DNA of 64,000 nt from Escherichia phage HK6: the sequence record PP724615.1. One strand, written 5' to 3'. Made by a program: the position numbers and the translations under genes. This document shows positions 4,291 to 33,428 of the stretch, in pieces. Numbering within the stretch: the stretch's first letter is position 1; the number at the start of each line of letters is the position of its first letter. The notes under the pieces were generated by a model. That model saw nothing but the letters and a program-made list of their open reading frames with translations. It ran no database searches and was not told where the DNA came from.

Positions 4291-4719
4291 ATGTTCAATA
4301 ATGTATTCTCTAAAGAAGCTAACCCAATTTTGGTTAACTTTTGGCGTACTCTCCCAGCTAGCCTGTATAATGAGGCTATTAACTCCTTGAAAATATGGTG
4401 TGAGAATAATGAAATCTCCTTTGCTTTTAAAGATGATATTGATGAGGCCCCCTGTATTGGTTTAATTGTTCAGGTAGAGGAGGGTCTTGAGGAGATTGTC
4501 GGCTGGAAAGAGTTAGATGAAATAGGCTTAGTTTTTGCGTTAAACTATAAGCTGTTTATGCCTGCTAAGCATCGCCTCGTTGTTAACTATAAAACTAGTG
4601 AATCTCCTGGTTTTCAAGTTAATGAACGTTACGGTTGGTCTTACTTACCGGAAGAAGTAAATGATGGTATCCAAAAACTTCGCCGTTTTGGTTATCAAAT
4701 TCCGGGTTTAACTGCTTAA
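4291..4719 (+). CDS. hypothetical protein, paralog A of a tandem pair, 142 aa
   Basis: AAGGTG RBS; shares PCIG...GW.ELD/S..GL..ALN and R.G...PGL segments with the next ORF. Confidence 0.6.
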   Translation: MFNNVFSKEANPILVNFWRTLPASLYNEAINSLKIWCENNEISFAFKDDIDEAPCIGLIVQVEEGLEEIVGWKELDEIGLVFALNYKLFMPAKHRLVVNYKTSESPGFQVNERYGWSYLPEEVNDGIQKLRRFGYQIPGLTA

Positions 4720-4728
4720 GGAGGAAGA

Positions 4729-5121
4729 ATGGAACAAGTATATTGGCGTCAGATTGACCCTAGTTTGGTGAAGCGTGCGGAAAAGCTGCTACAACGTTGG
4801 TTAGGGGTAAGGCAAGCCTCCTTCACTTTTCCGGAGCAGCAAACGGATGATCCCTGCATTGGCGTTTTCCTGTCTGGATATGCCGGGGAATGGGAGATGG
4901 ACTGGAATGAATTGTCAGCTATGGGTTTAATTGTTGCCCTAAACTTCTCTATATTCCATCCACGTGGTTTGGCCATATGTCGCGTGCCTGATGACGGTTG
5001 TTCGCCCCATCTTTTACAGGTGGAAAATGATATTTGGGAGTACACTCCAGATATTCTCGCAGAAGCTAAAGAACAATTAAATCGTGTTGGGATTTATGTT
5101 CCGGGATTAAATGATGAATAA
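4729..5121 (+). CDS. hypothetical protein, paralog B of a tandem pair, 130 aa
   Basis: AGGAGG RBS; sequence similarity to ORF 4291-4719 (DDPCIGVFL, MGLIVALN, GIYVPGLND). Confidence 0.6.
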   Translation: MEQVYWRQIDPSLVKRAEKLLQRWLGVRQASFTFPEQQTDDPCIGVFLSGYAGEWEMDWNELSAMGLIVALNFSIFHPRGLAICRVPDDGCSPHLLQVENDIWEYTPDILAEAKEQLNRVGIYVPGLNDE

Positions 5122-5308
5122 GGAATTTTGGAAAATAAAAGGGAAGATTTCTAAGTGGAATACTACAGGGAAAATTAGTAAGTCTCTAGAGATAGAGATA
5201 GCTAGAATGTTTACTGATCCTAATTTTGATATAGAAAAACTAAGCAAAGTAGATGCTAAAAAAGTAGATAAGTATATAGAAGAGATTAGAAGTATTTTAA
5301 GTGTCTAA
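5111..5308 (+). CDS. hypothetical Lys-rich protein, 65 aa
   Basis: ORF overlapping the upstream stop; followed by an intrinsic terminator. Confidence 0.45.
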   Translation: MMNKEFWKIKGKISKWNTTGKISKSLEIEIARMFTDPNFDIEKLSKVDAKKVDKYIEEIRSILSV

Positions 5309-5315
5309 TCCACGT

Positions 5316-5342
5316 AACCGAGTCATTTTGGCTCGGTTTTAT
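5316..5342 (+). terminator. rho-independent terminator
   Basis: Hairpin CCGAGTCATTTTGGCTCGG followed by TTTT. Confidence 0.55.
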
Positions 5343-5384
5343 CCGTACTCAAGACCAATGATAGCACCATCCGGAAAATTTTAC

Positions 5385-5413
5385 TTGCAGGATGCCCAAA
5401 ATCTTGATATAAT
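5385..5413 (+). promoter_or_regulatory. sigma70-type promoter (TTGCAG-17-TATAAT)
   Basis: -35 TTGCAG 5385-5390, -10 TATAAT 5408-5413, followed by ATTTATATTGAATTGAGAGA resembling the downstream element of the other early promoters. Confidence 0.45.
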
Positions 5414-5911
5414 ATTTATATTGAATTGAGAGACATTAGTAAAAATTGATTTTGCTAATTTTTCTTGTTTACAATCCGCGATACGGAACAGTTAGGCTGC
5501 CCCATTAAGGGTTGTTTTAACTGTTACGTGTTAGTTTTTAAACAAATAGTTAATAGAATACTTAGCGATCTACATCCCGTAGGAACCCTGGTAAGGCCTC
5601 GAAGCAACCTAGTGTGAGGTGGTTGTGAAGTGAGACGGGAAGAGTGAAAAACTCTGAGAAGTGATGACGTAAGGTATACTGCATCTAGTATGAGCTAGTA
5701 CATGAAGCATTAGGTGAGCAAATCTGGCTTAGCGGCCATCCTCAAGGATTTGTGCGGTATAGTGAAGCGGCAGTGTAGCGTGAAAGGGGAAGTTGCCACC
5801 CCCCTTCAGTATTTGCGATTAATTGTTGAGAAATTGACAGTAACAGTTGTTCTATTCTTTCTGAATAGTCCTAAAGAAAACTTATTTCATTTCCAACACA
5901 GGAGTATTGTT

Positions 5912-8701
5912 GTGTTCTCAATCCTACAAGGTCATGCAGGATTTCATCGCGACTTAGCCACAGGCATTTGGCGAGAAGTTAAAGCAGAAGACTATCTTTT
6001 TGCTAAAAGATTTTCCTCAAAGCATCCTGAAGGTAAACCAGCTTCAATGCCCTTCAAGTTTGATGTAATTGATGAAGTTGATCCTCAAACCCTAGTAGAA
6101 ATGCTCCCTCTTATGAGACGTTTAACGTCTGACCCTCATATCGTTGCGGTACGAGGTCGATGTCTTGCACCCAAAAATAACGTGCGGCGTAAGAAGGGCA
6201 ACTTTAATGTATCTAACCCAAGTCATATAATTGCATTGGACGTGGATGGTATTGTAGATACAGGTGGTTGTAACAAGTTTGATCTTGTTGGCATGGCTCG
6301 ACATATTATTAGGATGTTAAATAGTATTAGTGAGGATATGTTTCCTCTTGATGCAGGGTTTATTGCTCATGCATCGTCTTCGGCTGGGCTAAAACCAGGT
6401 ATCCGAATGCACTTAATACTAGAATCTAATGTTAAAGTAACTCAGGGTCAAATCAAATTCTTATTTACATCTATCAACGAAAGTAGTAGACAAAAGTATG
6501 GCTTTGATATTGCCGACTTAGCTTATTACTCTTCCGTACAGCTCCATTATTTTGCAGATCCGTTATTTACCGATGGTATAGTAGATCCGTTTAAAGCGGA
6601 GGGTGCCTCACGTCTGGTATTTGTTAAGGGTTCTAAAGTAAATTTACCTAATAATCTGGTTGACTATGAAACAACTAGAGGTGAGTTTAAAGAGGAGTTC
6701 TACTCTTTACTCGACCAAATTAAGGGTAAAAAAGCTGCCTCTGATAAAGTAGAGGAAACTATCAGCGAACTAGAAGAAGCTGAGGATGGAGTGTACCTAC
6801 GTATTATACCTAAACTCTATCATAGAGCTTTGGAGGATGGTGTTGATTTTGCATGGCTAGAAAAAGAAATCCGTCCAGCCTTATCAGAATATATTGCAAC
6901 TAAAGATAATAGTCGCAATATTCAAGATTACTTTAATAACGGTCGTAAGCAGGCTCTAAAAGCATTTGTTAATAATTCTAAACGTGATATACCTGATGTT
7001 TTAAAAGGTATTCCACTTAAAAAGCTAGAAACTAACTCTCTAGAAACTGATAACTTCTTGAAATTAAATACTGTACCACCAGAAGGTTATATGACTTTTG
7101 TAAAAGCAAGTCTAGGTACAGGTAAAACTACGGCGGTTGTGCGTTGGTTAGATTCAGGAGTTATTAAAGGTAATTTCTTAGCAATTACCAATACTCGAGC
7201 ACTGGTATCTTCAAATGCTAAGAAATTTAGTGCAGGACAATATGATAAGTCTGTAGATATGCTTAATTTTAAGCGTGGCGCTATTGACCGTATGTCCACA
7301 ACTATACATTCTTTGCATAAGTTCAAGAGTTTTATTGGTCAAATTGATGCAATCTTTATCGATGAATGTGATGCTGTAATGAATGACCTATTATTCGCCC
7401 CGGTTGTTAAACAACGTCGTGAATGTATTCAGGTTCTTCGGGATATTCTTGCAACTGCAAAAATCATTATATTATCTGATGGGGATATTAGTGCAGAAAC
7501 AATTGAAGCATACGGTTCTTTGATTGAGTTTGATAAACCAGTAGCATTTTATAATCATCACCGTAAGATGCTGTCAAAAGCTCATGCTTATGAGTTCCCT
7601 GACGAATCCAGTATTTGGGTTGCACTTCAGACTTCTCTAGAGATGGGTGAGAAATCTATCCTAGTATCTGACTGTGGTCCAGATGAACTGAATGAGAAGG
7701 GCATGGCGTTGCGTCGTAATACGGGTGCGTTAGTTAAGGAAATCCACTCAAACTCTACGTCTGATGTAGATATTCGACGTATTCTGGATTACACAACTAA
7801 TGAGTTAATTGACCAACAAATTGATTGCTTATTATGTAGCCCATCCGTAACGAGCGGTGTTGACTTTAACTATTTTGATAACGTATTCGTTATTACTAGG
7901 ACCAGTAACCAAGCGCCAAACATGCGTTTTCAAGCAATCAGGCGCGACCGTGGCGCTCAGAACATTTATTATTTTATTGATAAATCTACGAGTGGATTCT
8001 CCGCAGGTTCTGAGCAATATAACATTGACGAGGGTTGGCTGGAGTTAGCACAGCAATTATACGCACGTCGCAGAGAGCTGGAATCTAGGAACTATACTAG
8101 TACTTTACGTTACTATTTGCTTGATCAGGGTGCAACTATTGATATTTTCAGTGAAAGCTGGGGAACTATCGAAGGTGCGGGGAAAGAATATACAGAAGAG
8201 CGAATCAAAGCCATTTTGTATTCAACCCCTGATTATTGTGCTCCACGCCATGCAGATGCGTATGAAGCTAAACTACTTCTTGTACGCTATTATCATCTTG
8301 AGTCTATTAAAGATGTAACAGTTGAGCATGTTGAACAATATATCAAGGATAAACCGAATGATCGAGCTGCATTCTTCCATAAGATGCACGAGATGTTCTG
8401 GGAAGATATTAAGAAGTGTTCAAATGTCACTATCAAACCATTCATAGAAGCTCTGAAAGGTAAGAAGAAAGATTTCTTCCTTAAAACAGGTCAGAGTGCT
8501 AACCCAAAATATGCAAGAATGTATCTTGGTATGATGGGTATTGGTAAGGATATGAACACGGAGAATATTGTAGACTGGTACAGAACCTATTGTAAAATCG
8601 AGTGTATGCCAATCCCATATAAGTTTATGACTGATGAGGAGAAACATATGCATGATGAAGCAATGGCAGAGCTAGGTGCTAGAAATGACAGTGAAGAATA
8701 A
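5912..8701 (+). CDS. replication-associated P-loop helicase (replication-origin-binding-protein-like), ~930 aa
   Basis: Walker A ASLGTGKTTAV, Walker B IFIDECDAV and later LLCSPSVTSGVDF; proposed start is GTG 5912 with AGGAG 7 nt upstream; the track start at 5714 is an in-frame GTG without RBS, and ATG 6047 is an alternative. Confidence 0.6.
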   Translation: MFSILQGHAGFHRDLATGIWREVKAEDYLFAKRFSSKHPEGKPASMPFKFDVIDEVDPQTLVEMLPLMRRLTSDPHIVAVRGRCLAPKNNVRRKKGNFNVSNPSHIIALDVDGIVDTGGCNKFDLVGMARHIIRMLNSISEDMFPLDAGFIAHASSSAGLKPGIRMHLILESNVKVTQGQIKFLFTSINESSRQKYGFDIADLAYYSSVQLHYFADPLFTDGIVDPFKAEGASRLVFVKGSKVNLPNNLVDYETTRGEFKEEFYSLLDQIKGKKAASDKVEETISELEEAEDGVYLRIIPKLYHRALEDGVDFAWLEKEIRPALSEYIATKDNSRNIQDYFNNGRKQALKAFVNNSKRDIPDVLKGIPLKKLETNSLETDNFLKLNTVPPEGYMTFVKASLGTGKTTAVVRWLDSGVIKGNFLAITNTRALVSSNAKKFSAGQYDKSVDMLNFKRGAIDRMSTTIHSLHKFKSFIGQIDAIFIDECDAVMNDLLFAPVVKQRRECIQVLRDILATAKIIILSDGDISAETIEAYGSLIEFDKPVAFYNHHRKMLSKAHAYEFPDESSIWVALQTSLEMGEKSILVSDCGPDELNEKGMALRRNTGALVKEIHSNSTSDVDIRRILDYTTNELIDQQIDCLLCSPSVTSGVDFNYFDNVFVITRTSNQAPNMRFQAIRRDRGAQNIYYFIDKSTSGFSAGSEQYNIDEGWLELAQQLYARRRELESRNYTSTLRYYLLDQGATIDIFSESWGTIEGAGKEYTEERIKAILYSTPDYCAPRHADAYEAKLLLVRYYHLESIKDVTVEHVEQYIKDKPNDRAAFFHKMHEMFWEDIKKCSNVTIKPFIEALKGKKKDFFLKTGQSANPKYARMYLGMMGIGKDMNTENIVDWYRTYCKIECMPIPYKFMTDEEKHMHDEAMAELGARNDSEE

Positions 8702-27722: not shown

Positions 27723-27760
27723 GAAAAAACCCCAGTGGATTTTGTCCACTGGGGTTTATT
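27723..27760. terminator. bidirectional rho-independent terminator at the early/late convergence point
   Basis: AAAAAACCCCAGTGGATTTTGTCCACTGGGGTTTATT: 10-bp GC-rich stem flanked by an A-run and a T-run, usable from both strands. Confidence 0.6.
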
Positions 27761-27810: not shown

Positions 27811-27975
27811 TTACAGGGCTTTAAGTTCTTCAGCGAAGTTACCGCGACCACCCCAACCGTTACCGATCCAGAAACCAATCAAACCACCAATTGCATCACC
27901 GATACCAGCCGCACCAGCTTCGCTACCAAAGCCGTCACCGCCCAGATTGGTAGGTAAAAGAGTCAAGTCAGACAT
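27811..27975 (-). CDS. small glycine-zipper peptide, 54 aa
   Basis: ATG at 27975 with GGAGA 7 nt upstream; product MSDLTLLPTNLGGDGFGSEAGAAGIGDAIGGLIGFWIGNGWGGRGNFAEELKAL; promoter-like TTTACA-16-TAGTAT at 28075-28048 (minus); below the 60-aa track threshold. Confidence 0.5.
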   Translation of the reverse strand: MSDLTLLPTNLGGDGFGSEAGAAGIGDAIGGLIGFWIGNGWGGRGNFAEELKAL

Positions 27976-28196
27976 AAGAAAATCTCCATATATGGGTTGT
28001 TAGACGGATGTAACCAGTTGGTTACACTGGTAAGTATACTCGCTAACATACTATTTACCATGATATGCGTGTAAATAAATTGTAAATAGCCTGGCATTGG
28101 TACTCCTATAATGCAATGGACGCCATGACTTGAACAAAAGGAGGGAGTTATGTTTAAACGCGGTGCGGTCATAGGTAAGGCGAGAAAGTGACAACT

Positions 28197-28228
28197 AAAA
28201 AAAAAAAAAAAAGGAGCCAAACGGCTCC
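28197..28228 (-). terminator. rho-independent terminator downstream of the tail fiber gene
   Basis: On the minus strand, hairpin GGAGCCGTTTGGCTCC followed by a 16-nt T-run (A16 on the plus strand). Confidence 0.65.
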
Positions 28229-28241
28229 TTAATTATTGTGG

Positions 28242-30899
28242 TTATGGCAGATCGTTGTTAACCACATTGCCCTTCAACGCAGCTATCTCCGCTTTCAAAC
28301 TATCAATTTCTGCTTTGAGCGCTTGAGTGGCGCCCATCAAGTCCATAATAATAGGGTTAGTATCAATTGAAGGTCTGTCTCGGGTCTTCTGTGAAACAAT
28401 TTTCTTCTCGACTTCACGACGAATAAATTTCTGTTCAATGCGTTGTTCTTTGATTTGTTCTGTAATACCAGTTTCGGGGTCGGTATAATCTACAGTAACC
28501 TCTACAGGTACATCCTCGTATATATCCTTATAAACATCCTCGTATACATCCTCATAAATCTCTTCATTGTGCTTCACATATTGTGGGGTGACTTTCTCCG
28601 ATTCTTCTGCAATAATACCAAATCTTATTCTTTCTTGTTCATCATCCTTATAAATAAAAGTGACCATGCGTTGTGCCATGATGCGGTTTAAAGCATCAAT
28701 AGGATTACCGTCATTGATCTCCTTTTTATATGCTAAGCCAGATGTTCCTTGCAGTGCAAGGGTTCCGGCAGCACTCGGAAGCCTAATCCAATACTCAGGC
28801 GAACCTGCTGGGGTATATGTTTGAAATCCATAGCTCCCTACAGTTTCGCTAAATCCAACACGGGTTCGAATAACTCCATTTGCTGCTAAGTTACAAGCAT
28901 AAGACGCTGCACCATTGGATCTAAACGTTGCAGCGTCGGTTCCTGCTTCCCCGCCACCTGCTACAATCCGCCCGGTAATATAGGTAGAGAACGCAAGTGT
29001 AATCCCAGTACCCGCACCCCCAATGATTACCGGAGTAGAATGATACGTGCCATCCTCATTGTAGTAGTAGAATGCATAGGCCCCGCTGGCAGCATGCCCT
29101 GATCGCCATCTTACAGTAGATGGACTGGAAGGTCCAGTATAGGCTGTGTAAGCCGTACCCGCACCCGTCGCTCTAACTAATAGGCTGTCTTGACTATAGC
29201 TCCCAGTTGTCCTGAGCTGACCAACTTCCCCAAATGAATTAGTCTTGTGAGATGGTAGCGTGACTGTTTTAGCTGAAGCGCTGTAGTTAAAGACAGCATT
29301 AGTGCTACTAGTATTATTCTCCTGGAGTCGTATGCTACCGCCATCCATAACCATAACATAGCCAGTTACATCACCTGCGGCGTCAACTTCTTCAAATTTA
29401 ATTGTTGGGTTAGCACTCTTGATTAAAAGAGGGTCACTAGCGGTCGCCCCAAATTCTGCATTAAGGTTAAACTTCTGCTTTTTGGTAAAAGTATTTTCAG
29501 CACCAAGTCTAGCTATGCTGGAAGGGTCCATTGAATCCACATACCCTTTCGCACGGTTAGCTTCCTCTGTTGCTAGGGTAGCTTTCTGCCCTGCGGTTGT
29601 AGCGCTGCCTGCGGCTGCTGTAGCTTGTTTCACCGCTTCGGTTGCACTAGCACCCGCTTGAGTTGCAGAAGCTGCGGCAGCGTCTTTTAGTGGGGTTATT
29701 GCATTAATTGCTTCCGTCTTAGCTGTATTAACTTCTTTGACTGCGTCGGCTTTAGCTGTTGCGACTTCAGTCAACGCGGAGTCTTTAATTGCTTGAGTAT
29801 CTGTTTTTAACTGAGTAACGTCAGCCTTAATCTGAGTAACTGTAGCTACAGCAGCGTTAGTTGTGTTAGCAGACCCCGCCGCGTCAGCTTGTGCTTGTCT
29901 AGCAGCCTCTTCACTAGCTTTTGAGTTAGTTTCACTAGCTTTTGAGTTAGTTTCTGAATTTTTTGCTGCAGCAGCAGCAGCAGTAGCCTGCGTAGCGAAT
30001 ATTTCTGCCTCATCCCTGAATCCTTTGGAATCAGAAGCAGATGCAGCACTACTAGCAGCGTTAGTTTCTGAAGTTTTAGCTGCGGAAGCGGATGCAGCAG
30101 CGTTAGTTTCTGAAGCTTTTGCAGCTGCAGCAGAAGCAGCCGCAGCCGTTTCTGAGGTTTTAGCCGCTGAAGCAGAAGCAGACGCAGCAGTTTTGCTACT
30201 ATTAGCATTAGTCTCAGAAGTTTTAGCCGCTGTTTCACTAGCTTTTGCATTAGTCTCAGAAGTTTTAGCTGCGGTTTCACTAGCTTTTGCGTTGGTTTCT
30301 GAAATTTTTGCTGCTGTTTCACTAGCTTTTGCATTAGTCTCAGAAGTCTTAGCAGCTTTAGCACTGTTAGCAGAAGCAGTAGCAGAAGAAGCAGAAGCAG
30401 TAGCAGAAGAAACAGACTGAGCTGCAGAAGAAGCAGACTGAGTTGCAGATTGTTGAGAAGATCCTGCGGAAATTTCTGCTTCATTCTCAGAAGTTTTAGC
30501 CGCTATTTCACTTGCTTTTGCGTTAGTTTCTGAAGTTTTAGCCGCTATTTCACTTGCTTTTGCATTGGTCTCAGAAGTCTTAGCAGCTTTAGCACTATTA
30601 GCCGAAGCAGTAGCAGAAGACGCAGACTGAGTTGCAGATTGCTGGGAAGATGTTGCGGAAATTTCAGCTTCATTCTCAGAGTCTTTAGCACTTAATTCTG
30701 ACTGTTTAGCATTAATCTCAGATTGCTTAGCTGCTGCAGCGGATGCTTTAGAGGACTCTATAGCAGAGGTTAGCTCTGCAGCAGTAATGGAGCTAATTGT
30801 ATTCCCAAGAACTACAGTGTATTTAGGGTATTTACTTGCAGTTACACTATTTTGGTCCATAGTGACCATTTGTTGTAAAATTATTTTCGTTATAGCCAT
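28242..30899 (-). CDS. tail fiber protein with Ala/Ser-rich tandem repeats and C-terminal intramolecular chaperone (S74-like) domain, 885 aa
   Basis: C-terminal SGLAYK (Ser/Lys dyad candidate) followed by IDALNRIMAQRMVTFIYKDD...RFGIIAEESEKV typical of autoproteolytic fiber chaperone domains; N-terminal half made of (K)TSETNAKASE(T/I)AA repeats. Confidence 0.7.
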   Translation of the reverse strand: MAITKIILQQMVTMDQNSVTASKYPKYTVVLGNTISSITAAELTSAIESSKASAAAAKQSEINAKQSELSAKDSENEAEISATSSQQSATQSASSATASANSAKAAKTSETNAKASEIAAKTSETNAKASEIAAKTSENEAEISAGSSQQSATQSASSAAQSVSSATASASSATASANSAKAAKTSETNAKASETAAKISETNAKASETAAKTSETNAKASETAAKTSETNANSSKTAASASASAAKTSETAAAASAAAAKASETNAAASASAAKTSETNAASSAASASDSKGFRDEAEIFATQATAAAAAAKNSETNSKASETNSKASEEAARQAQADAAGSANTTNAAVATVTQIKADVTQLKTDTQAIKDSALTEVATAKADAVKEVNTAKTEAINAITPLKDAAAASATQAGASATEAVKQATAAAGSATTAGQKATLATEEANRAKGYVDSMDPSSIARLGAENTFTKKQKFNLNAEFGATASDPLLIKSANPTIKFEEVDAAGDVTGYVMVMDGGSIRLQENNTSSTNAVFNYSASAKTVTLPSHKTNSFGEVGQLRTTGSYSQDSLLVRATGAGTAYTAYTGPSSPSTVRWRSGHAASGAYAFYYYNEDGTYHSTPVIIGGAGTGITLAFSTYITGRIVAGGGEAGTDAATFRSNGAASYACNLAANGVIRTRVGFSETVGSYGFQTYTPAGSPEYWIRLPSAAGTLALQGTSGLAYKKEINDGNPIDALNRIMAQRMVTFIYKDDEQERIRFGIIAEESEKVTPQYVKHNEEIYEDVYEDVYKDIYEDVPVEVTVDYTDPETGITEQIKEQRIEQKFIRREVEKKIVSQKTRDRPSIDTNPIIMDLMGATQALKAEIDSLKAEIAALKGNVVNNDLP
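29850..30720 (-). repeat. imperfect in-frame tandem repeats (~39-bp units) inside the tail fiber gene
   Basis: Recurring GCTTTTGCATTAGTCTCAGAAGTTTTAGCNGC units; both-strand long ORFs in the track (29846-30484, 29863-30420) are artefacts of this low complexity. Confidence 0.6.
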
Positions 30900-31321
30900 T
30901 ATTGAGTTACCCCGTCACTAATATAAATTTTACCTTCCATAATACGGAAAGAGCTAGTAGCACTACCAACAGCTGTTCTAGTAATTATAACATCGTAGTA
31001 TCCAGCTAACCTTTGTCTAGGATTATACCTATCCCTTTCTTTGGATGCTTTGGAAGCAATAGTAGTTACGGCATTAACAGGTAAGCTTATAGATGCTACA
31101 CCTTGTCTAGCATCCACAATAGAAGTGGTAAAGGATGCTAAAGTTTCAGCTCCATCTTCTAAGCTACTTTTAATACTTCCTCTAAGAGAGAAGCCAGTAA
31201 GATCTACTGGCTTAGATGTAGCAGGATAAACACTATCATCTACATCCATAAATTGCATAAGTAAACCATAAGGTACGTTTTCGTCTACTACTAAATCAAT
31301 AACTCTATTTTCTGTACTCAT
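30899..31321 (-). CDS. tail structural protein (position and size of the T5 collar/p132-type protein), 140 aa
   Basis: Size and synteny only; start overlaps the stop of the upstream gene. Confidence 0.35.
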
Positions 31322-31325
31322 TATT

Positions 31326-33428
31326 TTACCTTATATGGATATACCCGTTTTGCAGGTCTATCTTCATTTTGTAAGATCCCTCTGGATTAGAGGATAGTGC
31401 TGCTGCACGATCATATATAATATTTACACCAATTTGTGATAAGAAAGCGTTATTAGCAACAATTTTACTAGCAGTTACTGTACCATTAACTATCATATCA
31501 CCATGTAAAACCATTGCAGGGCTAGCCCATGCTGAACCATTCCACTGCCTAGTAAACGCTGTTCCTGGTGCTCCGCTCTTATACTCTGTTAGTACATCAT
31601 ATTTAACAGGACCAGTACCAAAGTTAGATGTAAAAAACGAATTAGCTTGAGAATCATTCCATGCTGTTAAATTCGCAATAGCAAGAGAATACATTCCAGG
31701 ACCACGTTGTCCATTATTACCTGGTCGTCCATCAGCTCCTGGTTTACCATCTGCTCCTGGTCTACCATCAACACCTTCAGTACCACTCCATTGAACTACA
31801 TCTGACCAACTGGTTCCGGATACTAACTGATTAGTAACAGGGTCTAGAGTACCAGTAGAGCAGTAAATATTTTGAGTATTAGATGTTCTATTTGGTGGGG
31901 TTTTAGACCAACCAGAAGGTGGGTATGCAGGGCTTGTTGGTTTAGCAGGTAATGAAGTACCTAGAATATAAATAAATACTGTTTGTTTACCCTGTATACC
32001 CGTCGCTATATCAATGTCGCCATTAGGTGTACCGATCACAACTCCACTAGAAATTCTTAAGGTATCACCATCATAACGAATATATTGTGTAGCATTACCG
32101 ATATCTAGTTTTGGCTTCGCAGTAGCATTATCCATACCCATCCAAATACCAGATTTTGTATCCCCCCAAGTTTTACCTTGAGTATAGATTGCAGGGTTGT
32201 CTTGACCAGTCAAATTAGTCATGACAAAGTTCGCAGCATTAATGGTTTTGGTTATTACACTTCCATCAACGTTAACTATCTTTTTAATAGGGTCAAAAGA
32301 TATTGGTGCTTTTCCTTCGGCATCTAGAAGTCCAATGTTAATTGCACCGGTGGCAGCGTCTATTAGAAAGGTTTGTTTCCAGGTAGATCCATCTTTAATC
32401 TTACCCTTGATGTATGCATAGTTTACTTCGATACCGGTCTCATTAACAAAACTATTATCTAACGGTGTACTCTCATTTAGTATAAATGTCTGTACTGCGG
32501 AATCAGTAACATCTTGAGCATCTGGTCCCCAGGCAATAGATGACACTTTAAATTTATGCTCTACTTTCCATGGGAATGATATAATTGTTGCCGACTGAGC
32601 AGCCCCCACGTTGATTTTTTGTGCTTTAGTCCATCCAGTTCTTGCAAATTCTGCTGAATCTATATAAGAGACAACGAATTCACGAACGTTGGCACCTGCA
32701 CCCCTATTCCAATCCCATTGCACACGTAAATCATAGCGTTCTTTACCGTCTGCTATACGCGCAGCTTTAAACGCAATATTAACAGGAGCTGTAGGGGGTA
32801 CAAAGTTATATCTAACTTCAAAGACAGTAGGATACTCATAGTATCCAGATGAATCAATAGTTACTCCATCTGGTAGGGATATTTGTCCAGAAATTCTTAC
32901 CTTATAGAACCCTATTGGCACACCACCAAACATAATAGTTGGCATCAACGCACCAACATAATATTTAACCCACGGATTATTAGCATTAGAATTGTTTTTT
33001 AATTCTATAGTACAATAATCAGCTTCTCCTGTAGTATCTATATAAACTATTGGCGCTCCAACACCTACGTCTACAGGCTCTGATTCACATCTAGTACCTG
33101 TAATTCTAGGTGCCGACTTCATTTTAAAAGTTTGTTTGTCAGATAGATTAATACCTATCTGAGCATTAAGTAGTTCAGAGTCTATTATAGAATCATAAAA
33201 TGCACCCTGAACTTCATAAGTTGTTGTAGGTTTTAGGTTATTAATAGTTACAGAGAAGGTATCAACTCCAGTAAAATCTCTACGAGTAACATTGCTACCT
33301 TCTTTAAGCCAAAAAGATCTGCCTATAACGTCGTAATCAGAGTAGATAGAATGCTGGATATACGCCAACGTATATCCAGTTAAGACGCTATTTAGGACCA
33401 TTTTAGCTGGTGCATTATTTGAAATCAT
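31326..33428 (-). CDS. baseplate/central fiber protein (pb4-like) with collagen-like segment, 700 aa
   Basis: Size and synteny; Gly-X-Y run [27 protein letters not shown] near the C-terminus. Confidence 0.5.

Follow-up and report, generated by a model that had tools for sequence, protein, structure and literature searches.

A Gostya9-type lateral tail fibre carrying a Queuovirinae-like distal module in a T5-like Escherichia phage

The 64,000-nt window of Escherichia phage HK6 analysed here (PP724615.1) encodes, at 28242..30899 on the minus strand, a tail fibre of 885 residues at the LtfA/pb1 position of T5-like phages, where T5 itself has the 1396-residue lateral fibre pb1 (Ltf), raising the question of whether this is a shortened pb1 or a fibre built on another plan. 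A preliminary description of the sequence had given the length of pb1 correctly and proposed a variant architecture relevant to host range; each part of its interpretation was supported. In agreement with that proposal, the distal 60% of the protein proved to be unrelated to pb1; the fibre is a hybrid of the Gostya9 LtfA type that carries a Queuovirinae-like distal module, rather than a shortened pb1. We consider it highly probable that this ORF by itself encodes the L-shaped lateral fibre of a T5-like siphovirus, that the fibre is of this type, and that it operates by the mechanism proposed below.

The gene is a single ORF with an ATG start (885 aa and a stop codon), whose product matched the tail-fibre families phrog_5481 and phrog_24369 (PHROG, E 1e-84 to 1e-89). 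It lies directly downstream of the gene for the fibre's attachment partner, the p132/LtfC collar protein (30899..31321, minus strand; 140 aa; phrog_34807, E 8e-33, described as a collar tail protein for L-shaped tail fibre attachment), and at the convergent boundary with the D14-D15-dut early block. The fibre start codon and the collar gene stop codon overlap by 1 nt, and both this overlap and the gene order are identical in T5 and Gostya9. Synteny of the locus with p132 and pb4, along with N-terminal homology to T5 pb1 and DT57C LtfA (below), bears out the initial identification as a tail fibre. The collar gene matches that of locus L005 at 100% identity, and it and the genome backbone are closer to the Salmonella and E. 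coli phages SP01, SE11 and slur09 than to the Gostya9/DT57C clade. Past the fibre stop codon, an intrinsic terminator (28197..28230, minus strand) has a GC-rich stem of 8 bp and, after it, 16 consecutive T. Other ORFs, two of them over the repeat tract (29846..30484, minus strand, 212 aa; 29863..30420, plus strand, 185 aa) and one downstream (27963..28220, minus strand, 85 aa), were rejected as genes, being low-complexity by-products or lacking family matches.

An exact-sequence look-up of the 885-aa fibre matched no record, and a word-indexed protein search with its first 162 residues gave no more than 7 short fragments, probably owing to the low complexity of this query; relatives were gathered through the collar gene in IMG/VR. 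The closest relative was LtfA of Gostya9 (Tequintavirus gostya9; MH203051, AWN08771.1, 889 aa), which is colinear with the window fibre, with 81% protein identity over the full length. One blastn alignment, 3738 nt long and 87% identical, covered the two loci from 31330 to 27650, spanning both junctions of the distal module and their flanks. Both phages have a single-gene locus in which a T5-type N-terminus is followed by the Ser/Ala rod, the distal module and the long-hairpin chaperone, and both carry a truncated remnant of a neighbouring gene. The differences include rearrangements of the rods: in Gostya9 a duplicated 'SENEAEISA.SSQQSATQSASSA' block is placed elsewhere and the heptad run is 34 rather than 35, and the window fibre lacks one 11-aa unit of Gostya9's second rod, where an 11-aa indel also separates it from SLUR25. 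The fibre type is already known from Gostya9, and the window fibre is an ordinary member.

The distal part has close relatives beyond the T5-like phages. A block of about 2.1 kb (27848..29932, minus strand; blastn) is common to the window and the side-fibre loci of Seuratvirus (Queuovirinae), with identities over 2120 nt of 92.1% to SLUR25 and 91.5% to Skure. Besides the part encoding residues 323-885 of the fibre, it takes in the terminator, a spacer and the beginning of the Seuratvirus gene that comes next; in vB_Eco_SLUR25, SLUR63 and Skure alike, the fibre portion, the terminator and around 390 nt downstream are about 92% identical in nucleotides (about 90% in protein). Similarity to other T5-like phages stops at 30048 and restarts at 27760 (blastn). 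The N-terminal attachment domain of the Seuratvirus side fibres is a different one, with PF08400 recorded for the SLUR63 protein; a Pfam search of the window fibre did not find PF08400 and matched PF13884 only. The Seuratvirus fibres also lack the long Ser/Ala heptad tract, and their downstream gene is full length. In the window, that gene is reduced to a truncated 5' remnant, a Gly-rich ORF of 54 aa (27811..27975, minus strand) that matched positions 1-45 of the 234 in the phrog_9288 profile (E 6e-17); the full-length gene encodes 235 aa. In both the window and Gostya9, the first ~48 codons are left, fused to unrelated sequence at one and the same point, 'NFAEELKA'. The Gostya9 annotation labels the remnant 'Escherichia phage Greed', and this label suggests that its authors saw part of the Seuratvirus-like module.

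Because the neighbour gene is a truncated remnant here and full length in Queuovirinae, import into the T5-like lineage is suggested, a direction that rests on this one remnant. The distal module would have been gained by recombination with a Queuovirinae-like small siphovirus, with a crossover within an Ala/Ser-rich coiled-coil segment that the two fibre types share. Alternatively, the 2.1-kb module may have passed from T5-like phages to Seuratvirus, or both lineages may have taken it independently from a third donor. The left junction falls in an Ala/Ser-rich motif common to all parties and so carries no directional information, distant homologues of the downstream gene follow ltf in some Salmonella T5-like phages, and Drexlerviridae lateral fibres, a conceivable third source, have the same tip family at 32-55% identity. 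Transfer in the opposite direction, however, has to accommodate a phrog_9288 gene that is full length in Seuratvirus, Nonagvirus and Drexlerviridae and cut down to its opening codons in the window and Gostya9, and T5-like flanks that restart 88 nt beyond the block. We regard either alternative to import as unlikely, although they survive better than any other rival reading of the locus.

Within the module, residues 452-719 (28743..29546, minus strand) form the presumed receptor-binding domain, a beta-rich distal region that AF2 modelled entirely as beta strands with pLDDT mostly 50-83. Homologues of it occur in lateral fibres, among them those of Seuratvirus and Drexlerviridae. Diversifying selection is confined to this region: dN/dS was 1.06-1.92 in residues 452-719 versus 0.09-0.42 in the flanking segments, and between the window fibre and Gostya9 the region is 85% identical with a dN/dS of 1.14. 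Fold searches with the model of this region, which is of low to moderate confidence, gave no credible structural match; matches to OspA and flagellar-protein folds were dismissed as reflecting beta meanders that stand alone when one chain of an expected intertwined trimer is modelled as a monomer. By homology to T5 and DT57C, in which O-antigen binding is known, the tip would most likely recognize a surface polysaccharide (O-antigen) as primary receptor. In those two phages the binding to O-antigen polysaccharide is reversible and speeds up adsorption.

The distal region might instead be an enzymatic, tailspike-like depolymerase or esterase and not purely a binding tip, given that S74 chaperones are typical of endosialidase tailspikes and that the Ala/Ser N-terminal repeats resemble the N-termini of the Klebsiella depolymerases 7vyv and 7lzj. 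This seems very improbable, because PF13884 is the sole Pfam match and no catalytic domain was found in the fibre, the region is just 268 aa with no match to a beta-helix or hydrolase fold, and T5 pb1 and DT57C LtfA, its nearest characterised relatives, are fibres that bind.

The presumed binding tip is followed by a Peptidase_S74 intramolecular chaperone domain (residues 720-885, 166 aa; 28245..28742, minus strand), as had been anticipated from a chaperone-type C-terminus with a Ser/Lys pair. Pfam PF13884 matched residues 725-776 with 30.6 bits for the whole protein and 33.3 bits for the last 200 aa (gathering cut-off, 22 bits), and the C-terminal motifs are GTSGLAYK at 718 (S720, K725), IDALNR at 734 and RFGIIAEE at 759. 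Conservation and profile register place the predicted autoproteolytic site between T719 and S720, with the Ser/Lys pair inside codons T719-K725 (TSGLAYK; 28725..28745, minus strand); among 53 homologues, T719 is invariant and S720 and K725 are each at least 90% conserved. The chaperone fold is present, with a helical/beta core, a beta hairpin and a C-terminal trimerising helix, and fold searches matched 3gw6, 7dc3, 3gud and 4uw8. DT57C LtfA (8HQZ chain d, 1076 aa) has a chaperone of the same subfamily (GTSG..YK and RFG(I/V)IAEE, E 1.4e-26). The biochemistry, structure and cleavage mechanism of the T5 pb1 chaperone have been described (PMC4690869; 4UW7, 4UW8), and it shows the same T-S-x4-K register (S1264, K1269) and a beta-hairpin 'tentacle'. 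The pb1 and window chaperones are too diverged for direct sequence alignment: a MAFFT alignment of the C-termini misaligned the catalytic motif, and an HMM built from the fibre's chaperone subfamily did not detect pb1. The Ser/Lys equivalence with T5 rests on the shared Pfam profile, in which K725 and T5 K1269 both fall at position 6 and T5 S1264 falls at position 1, and on the fold.

By analogy with T5, the chaperone may nucleate trimer folding of the tip and then cut itself off at T719/S720, with S720 activated by K725, to leave a mature subunit of 719 aa; homology indicates that the domain is probably self-removing after folding. Details of catalysis may differ from T5, since the upstream Arg that serves there, together with D1239, as a folding sensor from the neighbouring chain (R1250) has no conserved equivalent in this subfamily. 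R706 does stand at the spacing of R1250, at -14 from S720, but the position holds S, N or F in close homologues and there is no acidic residue at -25, and R706 was not adopted as a conserved folding sensor.

The chaperone is unusual in length, at 166 aa compared with 113-125 aa in 31 close homologues, and it is also longer than the auto-processing domains of K1F endosialidase (3GW6), GA-1 neck appendage protein (3GUD) and MyRF (ICA, 7DC3). An extended hairpin accounts for the difference from the close homologues: between the anchors QY[IV]KH and RDRPS there are 62 aa in the fibre and 20-21 aa in the 31 homologues, reflecting a lineage-specific insertion of 42 aa (residues ~789-830; 28410..28535, minus strand; homologue alignment) in the beta hairpin at 775-845. 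The insertion is also found in the Seuratvirus side fibres, whereas the hairpin of DT57C is short (4 residues versus ~46 in the window fibre). A 12-nt tandem repeat at 28510-28558 (TRF, repeat family D4) gives rise to the sequence YEDV-YEDV-YKDI-YEDV within the insertion, and AF2 placed the two hairpin strands at 775-806 and 813-845 with pLDDT of ~86-91. In T5 pb1, the tentacle hairpin sits in grooves of the receptor-binding domain.

Towards the N-terminus, the fibre is dominated by a repeat tract (residues 44-288; 30036..30770, minus strand) of 35 unbroken Ser/Ala heptads of the form xxSxxxA. Tandem Repeats Finder detected DNA arrays of period 21, 42 and 84 nt at 29910-30731, about 820 bp and all in frame, close to the ~850 bp of in-frame Ala/Ser repeats first reported for this gene. 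The 14-aa unit KTSETNAKASE(T/I)AA corresponds to two heptads, the heptad being the basic protein unit, and the repeat is a 7-residue coiled-coil heptad, more than a plain Ala/Ser-rich tract. Of the 37 heptads in residues 51-309, 35 have Ser at position 3 and 36 have Ala or Ser at position 7; in shuffled controls (n = 20,000) the best-phase Ser count averaged 11.7 and was at most 19. The heptad periodicity is thus strict. AF2 monomer prediction gave helix over 40-457, the single-sequence model showing helices at 40-160 and 166-288. By homology to DT57C LtfA, we infer that residues 44-288 make up a rod in which three chains form a coiled coil. This long alpha-helical coiled coil would extend from about residue 40 to about residue 457, ~60 nm if helical throughout, with a small Ser/Ala core in the first 35-37 heptads.

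The rod is interrupted by SDSKGFRDE (residues 289-297; 30009..30035, minus strand), a conserved helix break (AF2, pLDDT <50) shortly after which the heptad frame moves by 3 residues, and which is possibly a hinge or a register change. The GFRD motif is also found in Gostya9, at residue 286, and in DT57C-type fibres, at residue 123. A second helical rod follows (residues 298-457, AF2 helix; 29529..30008, minus strand), whose heptads have a more canonical I/L/V core.

The preliminary description had flagged the repeats as liable to vary in length by recombination or slippage. The repeats are not invariant: T5-type fibres carry ~22-50 Ser/Ala heptads, always in whole numbers, and repeat blocks are rearranged between the window fibre and Gostya9 LtfA with a single 7-aa gap in the alignment. 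Ten exact direct repeats reach 18 nt or more, up to a maximum of 35 nt, and their spacing is a multiple of 21 nt in every case. Unequal recombination at these 21-nt-phased DNA repeats could add, remove or reshuffle whole heptads; given this phasing and the whole-heptad changes, rod length can vary with the coiled-coil register intact. Because exact repeats are so short, gain and loss may be slow. The repetitive DNA and the slippage once proposed for it might suggest a rapid contingency (phase-variation) switch that alters fibre expression or host range in each infection cycle. We think this highly improbable, since spacings in multiples of 21 nt mean that slippage would cause no frame shift, the units are imperfect with such short exact matches, and relatives differ in rod length, not in the receptor-binding part.

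The most T5-like part of the fibre is its N-terminus. Residues 1-39 (30783..30899, minus strand) form a collar-anchoring segment that aligns with DT57C LtfA from residue 5 onward (PDB 8hqz_d), the match to this structure extending into the first heptads (E 1.4e-31). Cryo-EM of DT57C LtfA described such an N-terminal anchor, with a helix that begins at T40 and a three-helix coiled coil (PMC10713586), and in the window phage residues 1-39 may likewise thread into the p132/LtfC collar ring. DT57C differs in having a second fibre gene, ltfB, and hence a branched fibre, whereas the window locus has a single gene, and the middle and receptor-binding parts of DT57C LtfA are unrelated to the window fibre. 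T5 pb1 has the same locus and collar partner and 22 Ser/Ala heptads, and its residues 1-205 are 70.8% identical to residues 1-226 of the window fibre; beyond residue 226, blastp found no similarity, and the middle of pb1 and its bullet-shaped polymannose-binding domain (970-1263) have no counterpart. A plain pb1 ortholog that lost ~500 residues and diverged beyond recognition distally would fit the genomic position and the shared N-terminal residues, but it is the least credible reading, as the blastp result and the failure of the chaperone HMM to find pb1 oppose it and the 2.1 kb shared with Seuratvirus fibres at 92% nucleotide identity refutes it.

The fibre prompts a tentative proposal, which we put forward as a possibility less likely than its alternatives combined: that the hairpin corresponding to the T5 tentacle has been lengthened about three-fold with both strands matched, its ascending strand made of four tandem YEDV-like repeats of 4 residues, and that the Ser/Ala tract acts as an in-register recombination linker. 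If true, the length of the tentacle would be an evolvable trait, driven by repeats and adjusted to the size or shape of the tip that the chaperone folds, and the heptad tract would let whole distal fibre modules pass between phage families in register.

The fibre locus leaves current understanding unchanged and gives a compact picture of fibre evolution, in which a conserved anchor is joined to a rod varying by whole heptads and to an exchanged distal cassette, apparently swapped across phage families through a common low-complexity coiled-coil segment. Within the cassette, a stretch of the tip with dN/dS at or above 1 stands beside a nearly invariant, predicted self-cleaving chaperone. For swapping fibres, the junction at 323-350, the tip at 452-719 and the predicted maturation site T719/S720 offer clean module boundaries. 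Alleles of this kind matter for host-range prediction and for the engineering of therapeutic phages, as it is the lateral fibres that determine which O-antigen types a T5-like phage gets past.

The lateral tail fibre of HK6 is encoded by a single ORF of 885 aa (28242..30899, minus strand), the ATG of which overlaps the stop of a 140-aa gene (30899..31321, minus strand) assigned to the PHROG 'collar tail protein for L-shaped tail fibre attachment'. The 885-aa ORF was itself assigned to PHROG tail-fibre families (E 1e-84 to 1e-89). Gene order in the window is that of T5, with plus-strand early genes (RusA-like D14, flap endonuclease D15 and dUTPase) converging on minus-strand tail genes (p132 collar, pb4-like straight fibre and more tail genes). 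The fibre N-terminus aligned with 8hqz chain d, the LtfA of DT57C (E 1.4e-31), and with residues 1–205 of T5 pb1 (70.8% identity). An exact-sequence look-up did not find the 885-aa protein in a large assembly index, and a search of 50,697 phage records gave two Gostya9 entries as its only full-length relatives. Gostya9 LtfA (889 aa) has 81% protein identity to the HK6 fibre, and Gostya9 DNA is colinear with the window across both junctions (87% over 3738 nt). HK6 is a T5-like phage whose fibre gene is an LtfA allele of Gostya9 type.

The variant architecture proposed in the preliminary description holds: pb1 similarity is confined to the N-terminus, and the distal 60% is of Seuratvirus type, with approximately 90% protein identity to the side tail fibres of SLUR25, SLUR63 and Skure (Seuratvirus, family Queuovirinae; genomes of around 59 kb). 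The block shared with these phages (29932..27848; 92.1% nucleotide identity to SLUR25 over 2120 nt) extends beyond the fibre stop, through the terminator and into a 54-aa ORF, and DNA similarity between the window and other T5-like phages ends at 30048 and restarts at 27760. The left junction (residues 323–350) falls within an Ala/Ser-rich coiled-coil motif, ...KASE.AA.QAQA.AAGSANT..., found in all parental types, a position consistent with a homologous crossover within the rod. We propose with moderate confidence that this block was imported once, in an ancestor, from a Queuovirinae-like phage into the fibre locus of a T5-like one, a view tempered because the module may instead have come to both groups from a third donor or moved in the reverse direction, either of which we consider unlikely. 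A shortened pb1 was rejected, as we found no similarity to T5 pb1 beyond fibre residue 226 and the distal part is Seuratvirus-like; an HMM of this chaperone subfamily also did not find pb1. Across its tail and head genes (31000–55000), the HK6 backbone is 94–96% identical to Escherichia phage slur09 and Salmonella phages SE11, SE8 and Kenya-K15/K18, none of which carries the distal module, so fibre allele and backbone differ in the nearest relatives. The Skure record (4426–6588) divides its homologous side fibre between two CDSs, with annotation ending around 190 nt short of the end of similarity, and likewise breaks the downstream phrog_9288 gene into two, apparently as a result of frameshifts or sequencing errors. 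The pb4-like straight central fibre protein (700 aa; 31326..33428, minus strand) has a short collagen-like Gly-X-Y run (27 aa, around residues 545–575), and its PHROG tail-fibre families from around residue 540 on differ from those of its N-terminal 565 residues, a hint of a further distal module of mosaic origin.

The fibre stop is followed immediately by a strong terminator (28197..28230; 8-bp GC stem at 28211–28230, then a run of 16 T) that belongs to the Seuratvirus-shared block. A second, also in the convergent gap (27727..27757), is a 13–14-bp perfect bidirectional hairpin, the counterpart of the T5 'efficient bidirectional terminator'. Between them, the Gly-rich 54-aa ORF (MSDLTLLPTNLGGDGFG...GNGWGGRGNFAEELKAL; 27811..27975, minus strand), which has a GGAG ribosome-binding site, corresponds to the first ~48 codons of phrog_9288, a 235-aa gene that lies downstream of the side fibre in Seuratvirus and of which many Queuovirinae and Drexlerviridae have a complete copy. 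In the window and Gostya9 the gene is cut off at the same point, the Gostya9 version having 65 aa and the same fusion point; the 54-aa ORF is a truncated 5' remnant of phrog_9288. In some BASEL Drexlerviridae phrog_9288 is annotated as a 'putative sugar-binding protein'; some T5-like phages of Salmonella have distant homologues downstream of ltf. A sigma-70-like promoter match (28075–28048, minus strand) lies between the fibre terminator and the remnant.

Overlapping TRF arrays with periods of 21, 42 and 84 nt span 29910 to 30731, and the spacing between repeat families is a multiple of 21 nt, as is that of all ten exact direct repeats of at least 18 nt (longest, 35 nt). These are the in-frame units of the preliminary description, its 14-aa unit being two heptads. 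A strict heptad emerges when the protein is set out in rows of seven from residue 51: across residues 51–309, 35 of 37 heptads have Ser at position 3 and 36 of 37 have Ala or Ser at position 7, and the longest unbroken run covers 35 heptads (residues 44–288). Across 20,000 shuffles, the mean Ser count in the best phase was 11.7 and the maximum no higher than 19. The repeats, like the C-terminal motifs, are confirmed as real and far beyond chance. A single-sequence AF2 model of residues 1–460 was helical from residue 40 to 457, with breaks only at 161–165 and 289–297. In DT57C, the first ~40 residues of LtfA insert into the LtfC ring, and the helix beginning at T40 is part of a three-helix coiled coil (PMC10713586); in T5, equivalent density is present but unmodelled (PMC10038345). 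On these structural descriptions and the modelled helix, the repeat tract is predicted to be the proximal coiled-coil rod, with an unusual small Ser/Ala core, and is probably trimeric by analogy. The conserved SDSKGFRDE at residues 289–297 (30009..30035, minus strand) interrupts the predicted helix; the motif, S(K/E)GFRD(S/E)AE, also occurs at residue 123 of DT57C-type fibres and twice in one comparison locus (L008), and may act in these fibres as a hinge or as a point of register shift. The HK6 second rod lacks an 11-residue unit, EVNT.KTSGVAA (around 29733, minus strand; near residue 389), present in both Gostya9 and SLUR25; this hendecad-sized indel would roughly keep coiled-coil phase.

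Relatives were compared using 18 T5-like loci from IMG/VR, retrieved via the collar gene, whose extracted fibres ranged from 983 to 1598 aa. The tract, initially proposed as a hotspot for length variation, does vary in heptad number and block order. Fibres sharing this N-terminal type all hold the heptad frame along the tract but differ in heptad number, with fixed-frame counts from residue 51 of 21, 22 (T5), 23, 33 (Gostya9), 34 (HK6) and 36, and longest runs of 22, 24, 34, 35, 37 and 50. The HK6 and Gostya9 tracts share their sequence blocks but arrange them differently; HK6 has a ~165-nt block duplicated at a spacing of 231 nt, and the sole gap in the alignment of the two tracts is exactly 7 residues. 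This variation is evolutionary length change with register preserved, and a frameshifting contingency switch was rejected because the exact repeats are short and none of their spacings would alter the reading frame.

The fibre C-terminus contains GTSGLAYK (S720, K725), IDALNR at 734 and RFGIIAEE at 759, and its match to Pfam Peptidase_S74 exceeds the gathering score. The Ser/Lys pair noted in the preliminary description is indeed conserved: all 53 aligned homologues have T719, and conservation is at least 90% at both S720 and K725. K725 occupies Pfam profile position 6; in T5 pb1, S1264 is at position 1, placing K1269 at position 6. Autoproteolysis of pb1 occurs between T1263 and S1264, with S1264 and K1269 shown or proposed as the acting residues (PMC4690869), and by analogy we infer autoproteolytic cleavage of the HK6 fibre. 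R706, at −14, has the spacing of the T5 'sensor' R1250 and was not relied on as a sensor because close homologues do not conserve it. From QY(I/V)KH to RDRPS, the chaperone has 20–21 residues in 31 homologues and 62 in HK6 and the SLUR63 cluster; Gostya9 and SLUR25 carry the same hairpin sequence as HK6, and the insertion is absent even from the next-closest tips (55% and 49% identity). AF2 predicted a 70-residue beta hairpin (strands 775–806 and 813–845; pLDDT ~86–91), with YEDV-YEDV-YKDI-YEDV in the ascending strand coded by a 12-nt tandem repeat (28510–28558). Equivalent T5 hairpins are 'tentacles' in grooves of the tip (PMC4690869); that the HK6 tentacle has lengthened to suit its own tip is plausible.

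Nei–Gojobori estimates per segment, in three pairwise comparisons among HK6, Gostya9 and SLUR25, gave dN/dS of 1.06–1.92 for the receptor-binding region (residues 452–719), 0.09–0.42 for the second rod (354–451) and 0.10–0.25 for the chaperone (720–885). The segments had similar dS, so amino-acid changes cluster in the presumed receptor-binding region, as would fit the described role of lateral fibres of these families in recognizing variable surface glycans. This region was modelled with pLDDT of 40–83 and had no credible match in fold searches. Overall, the preliminary description and interpretation of the fibre were correct. Unsurprising to a specialist, the locus is a clean and useful example of modular fibre evolution.
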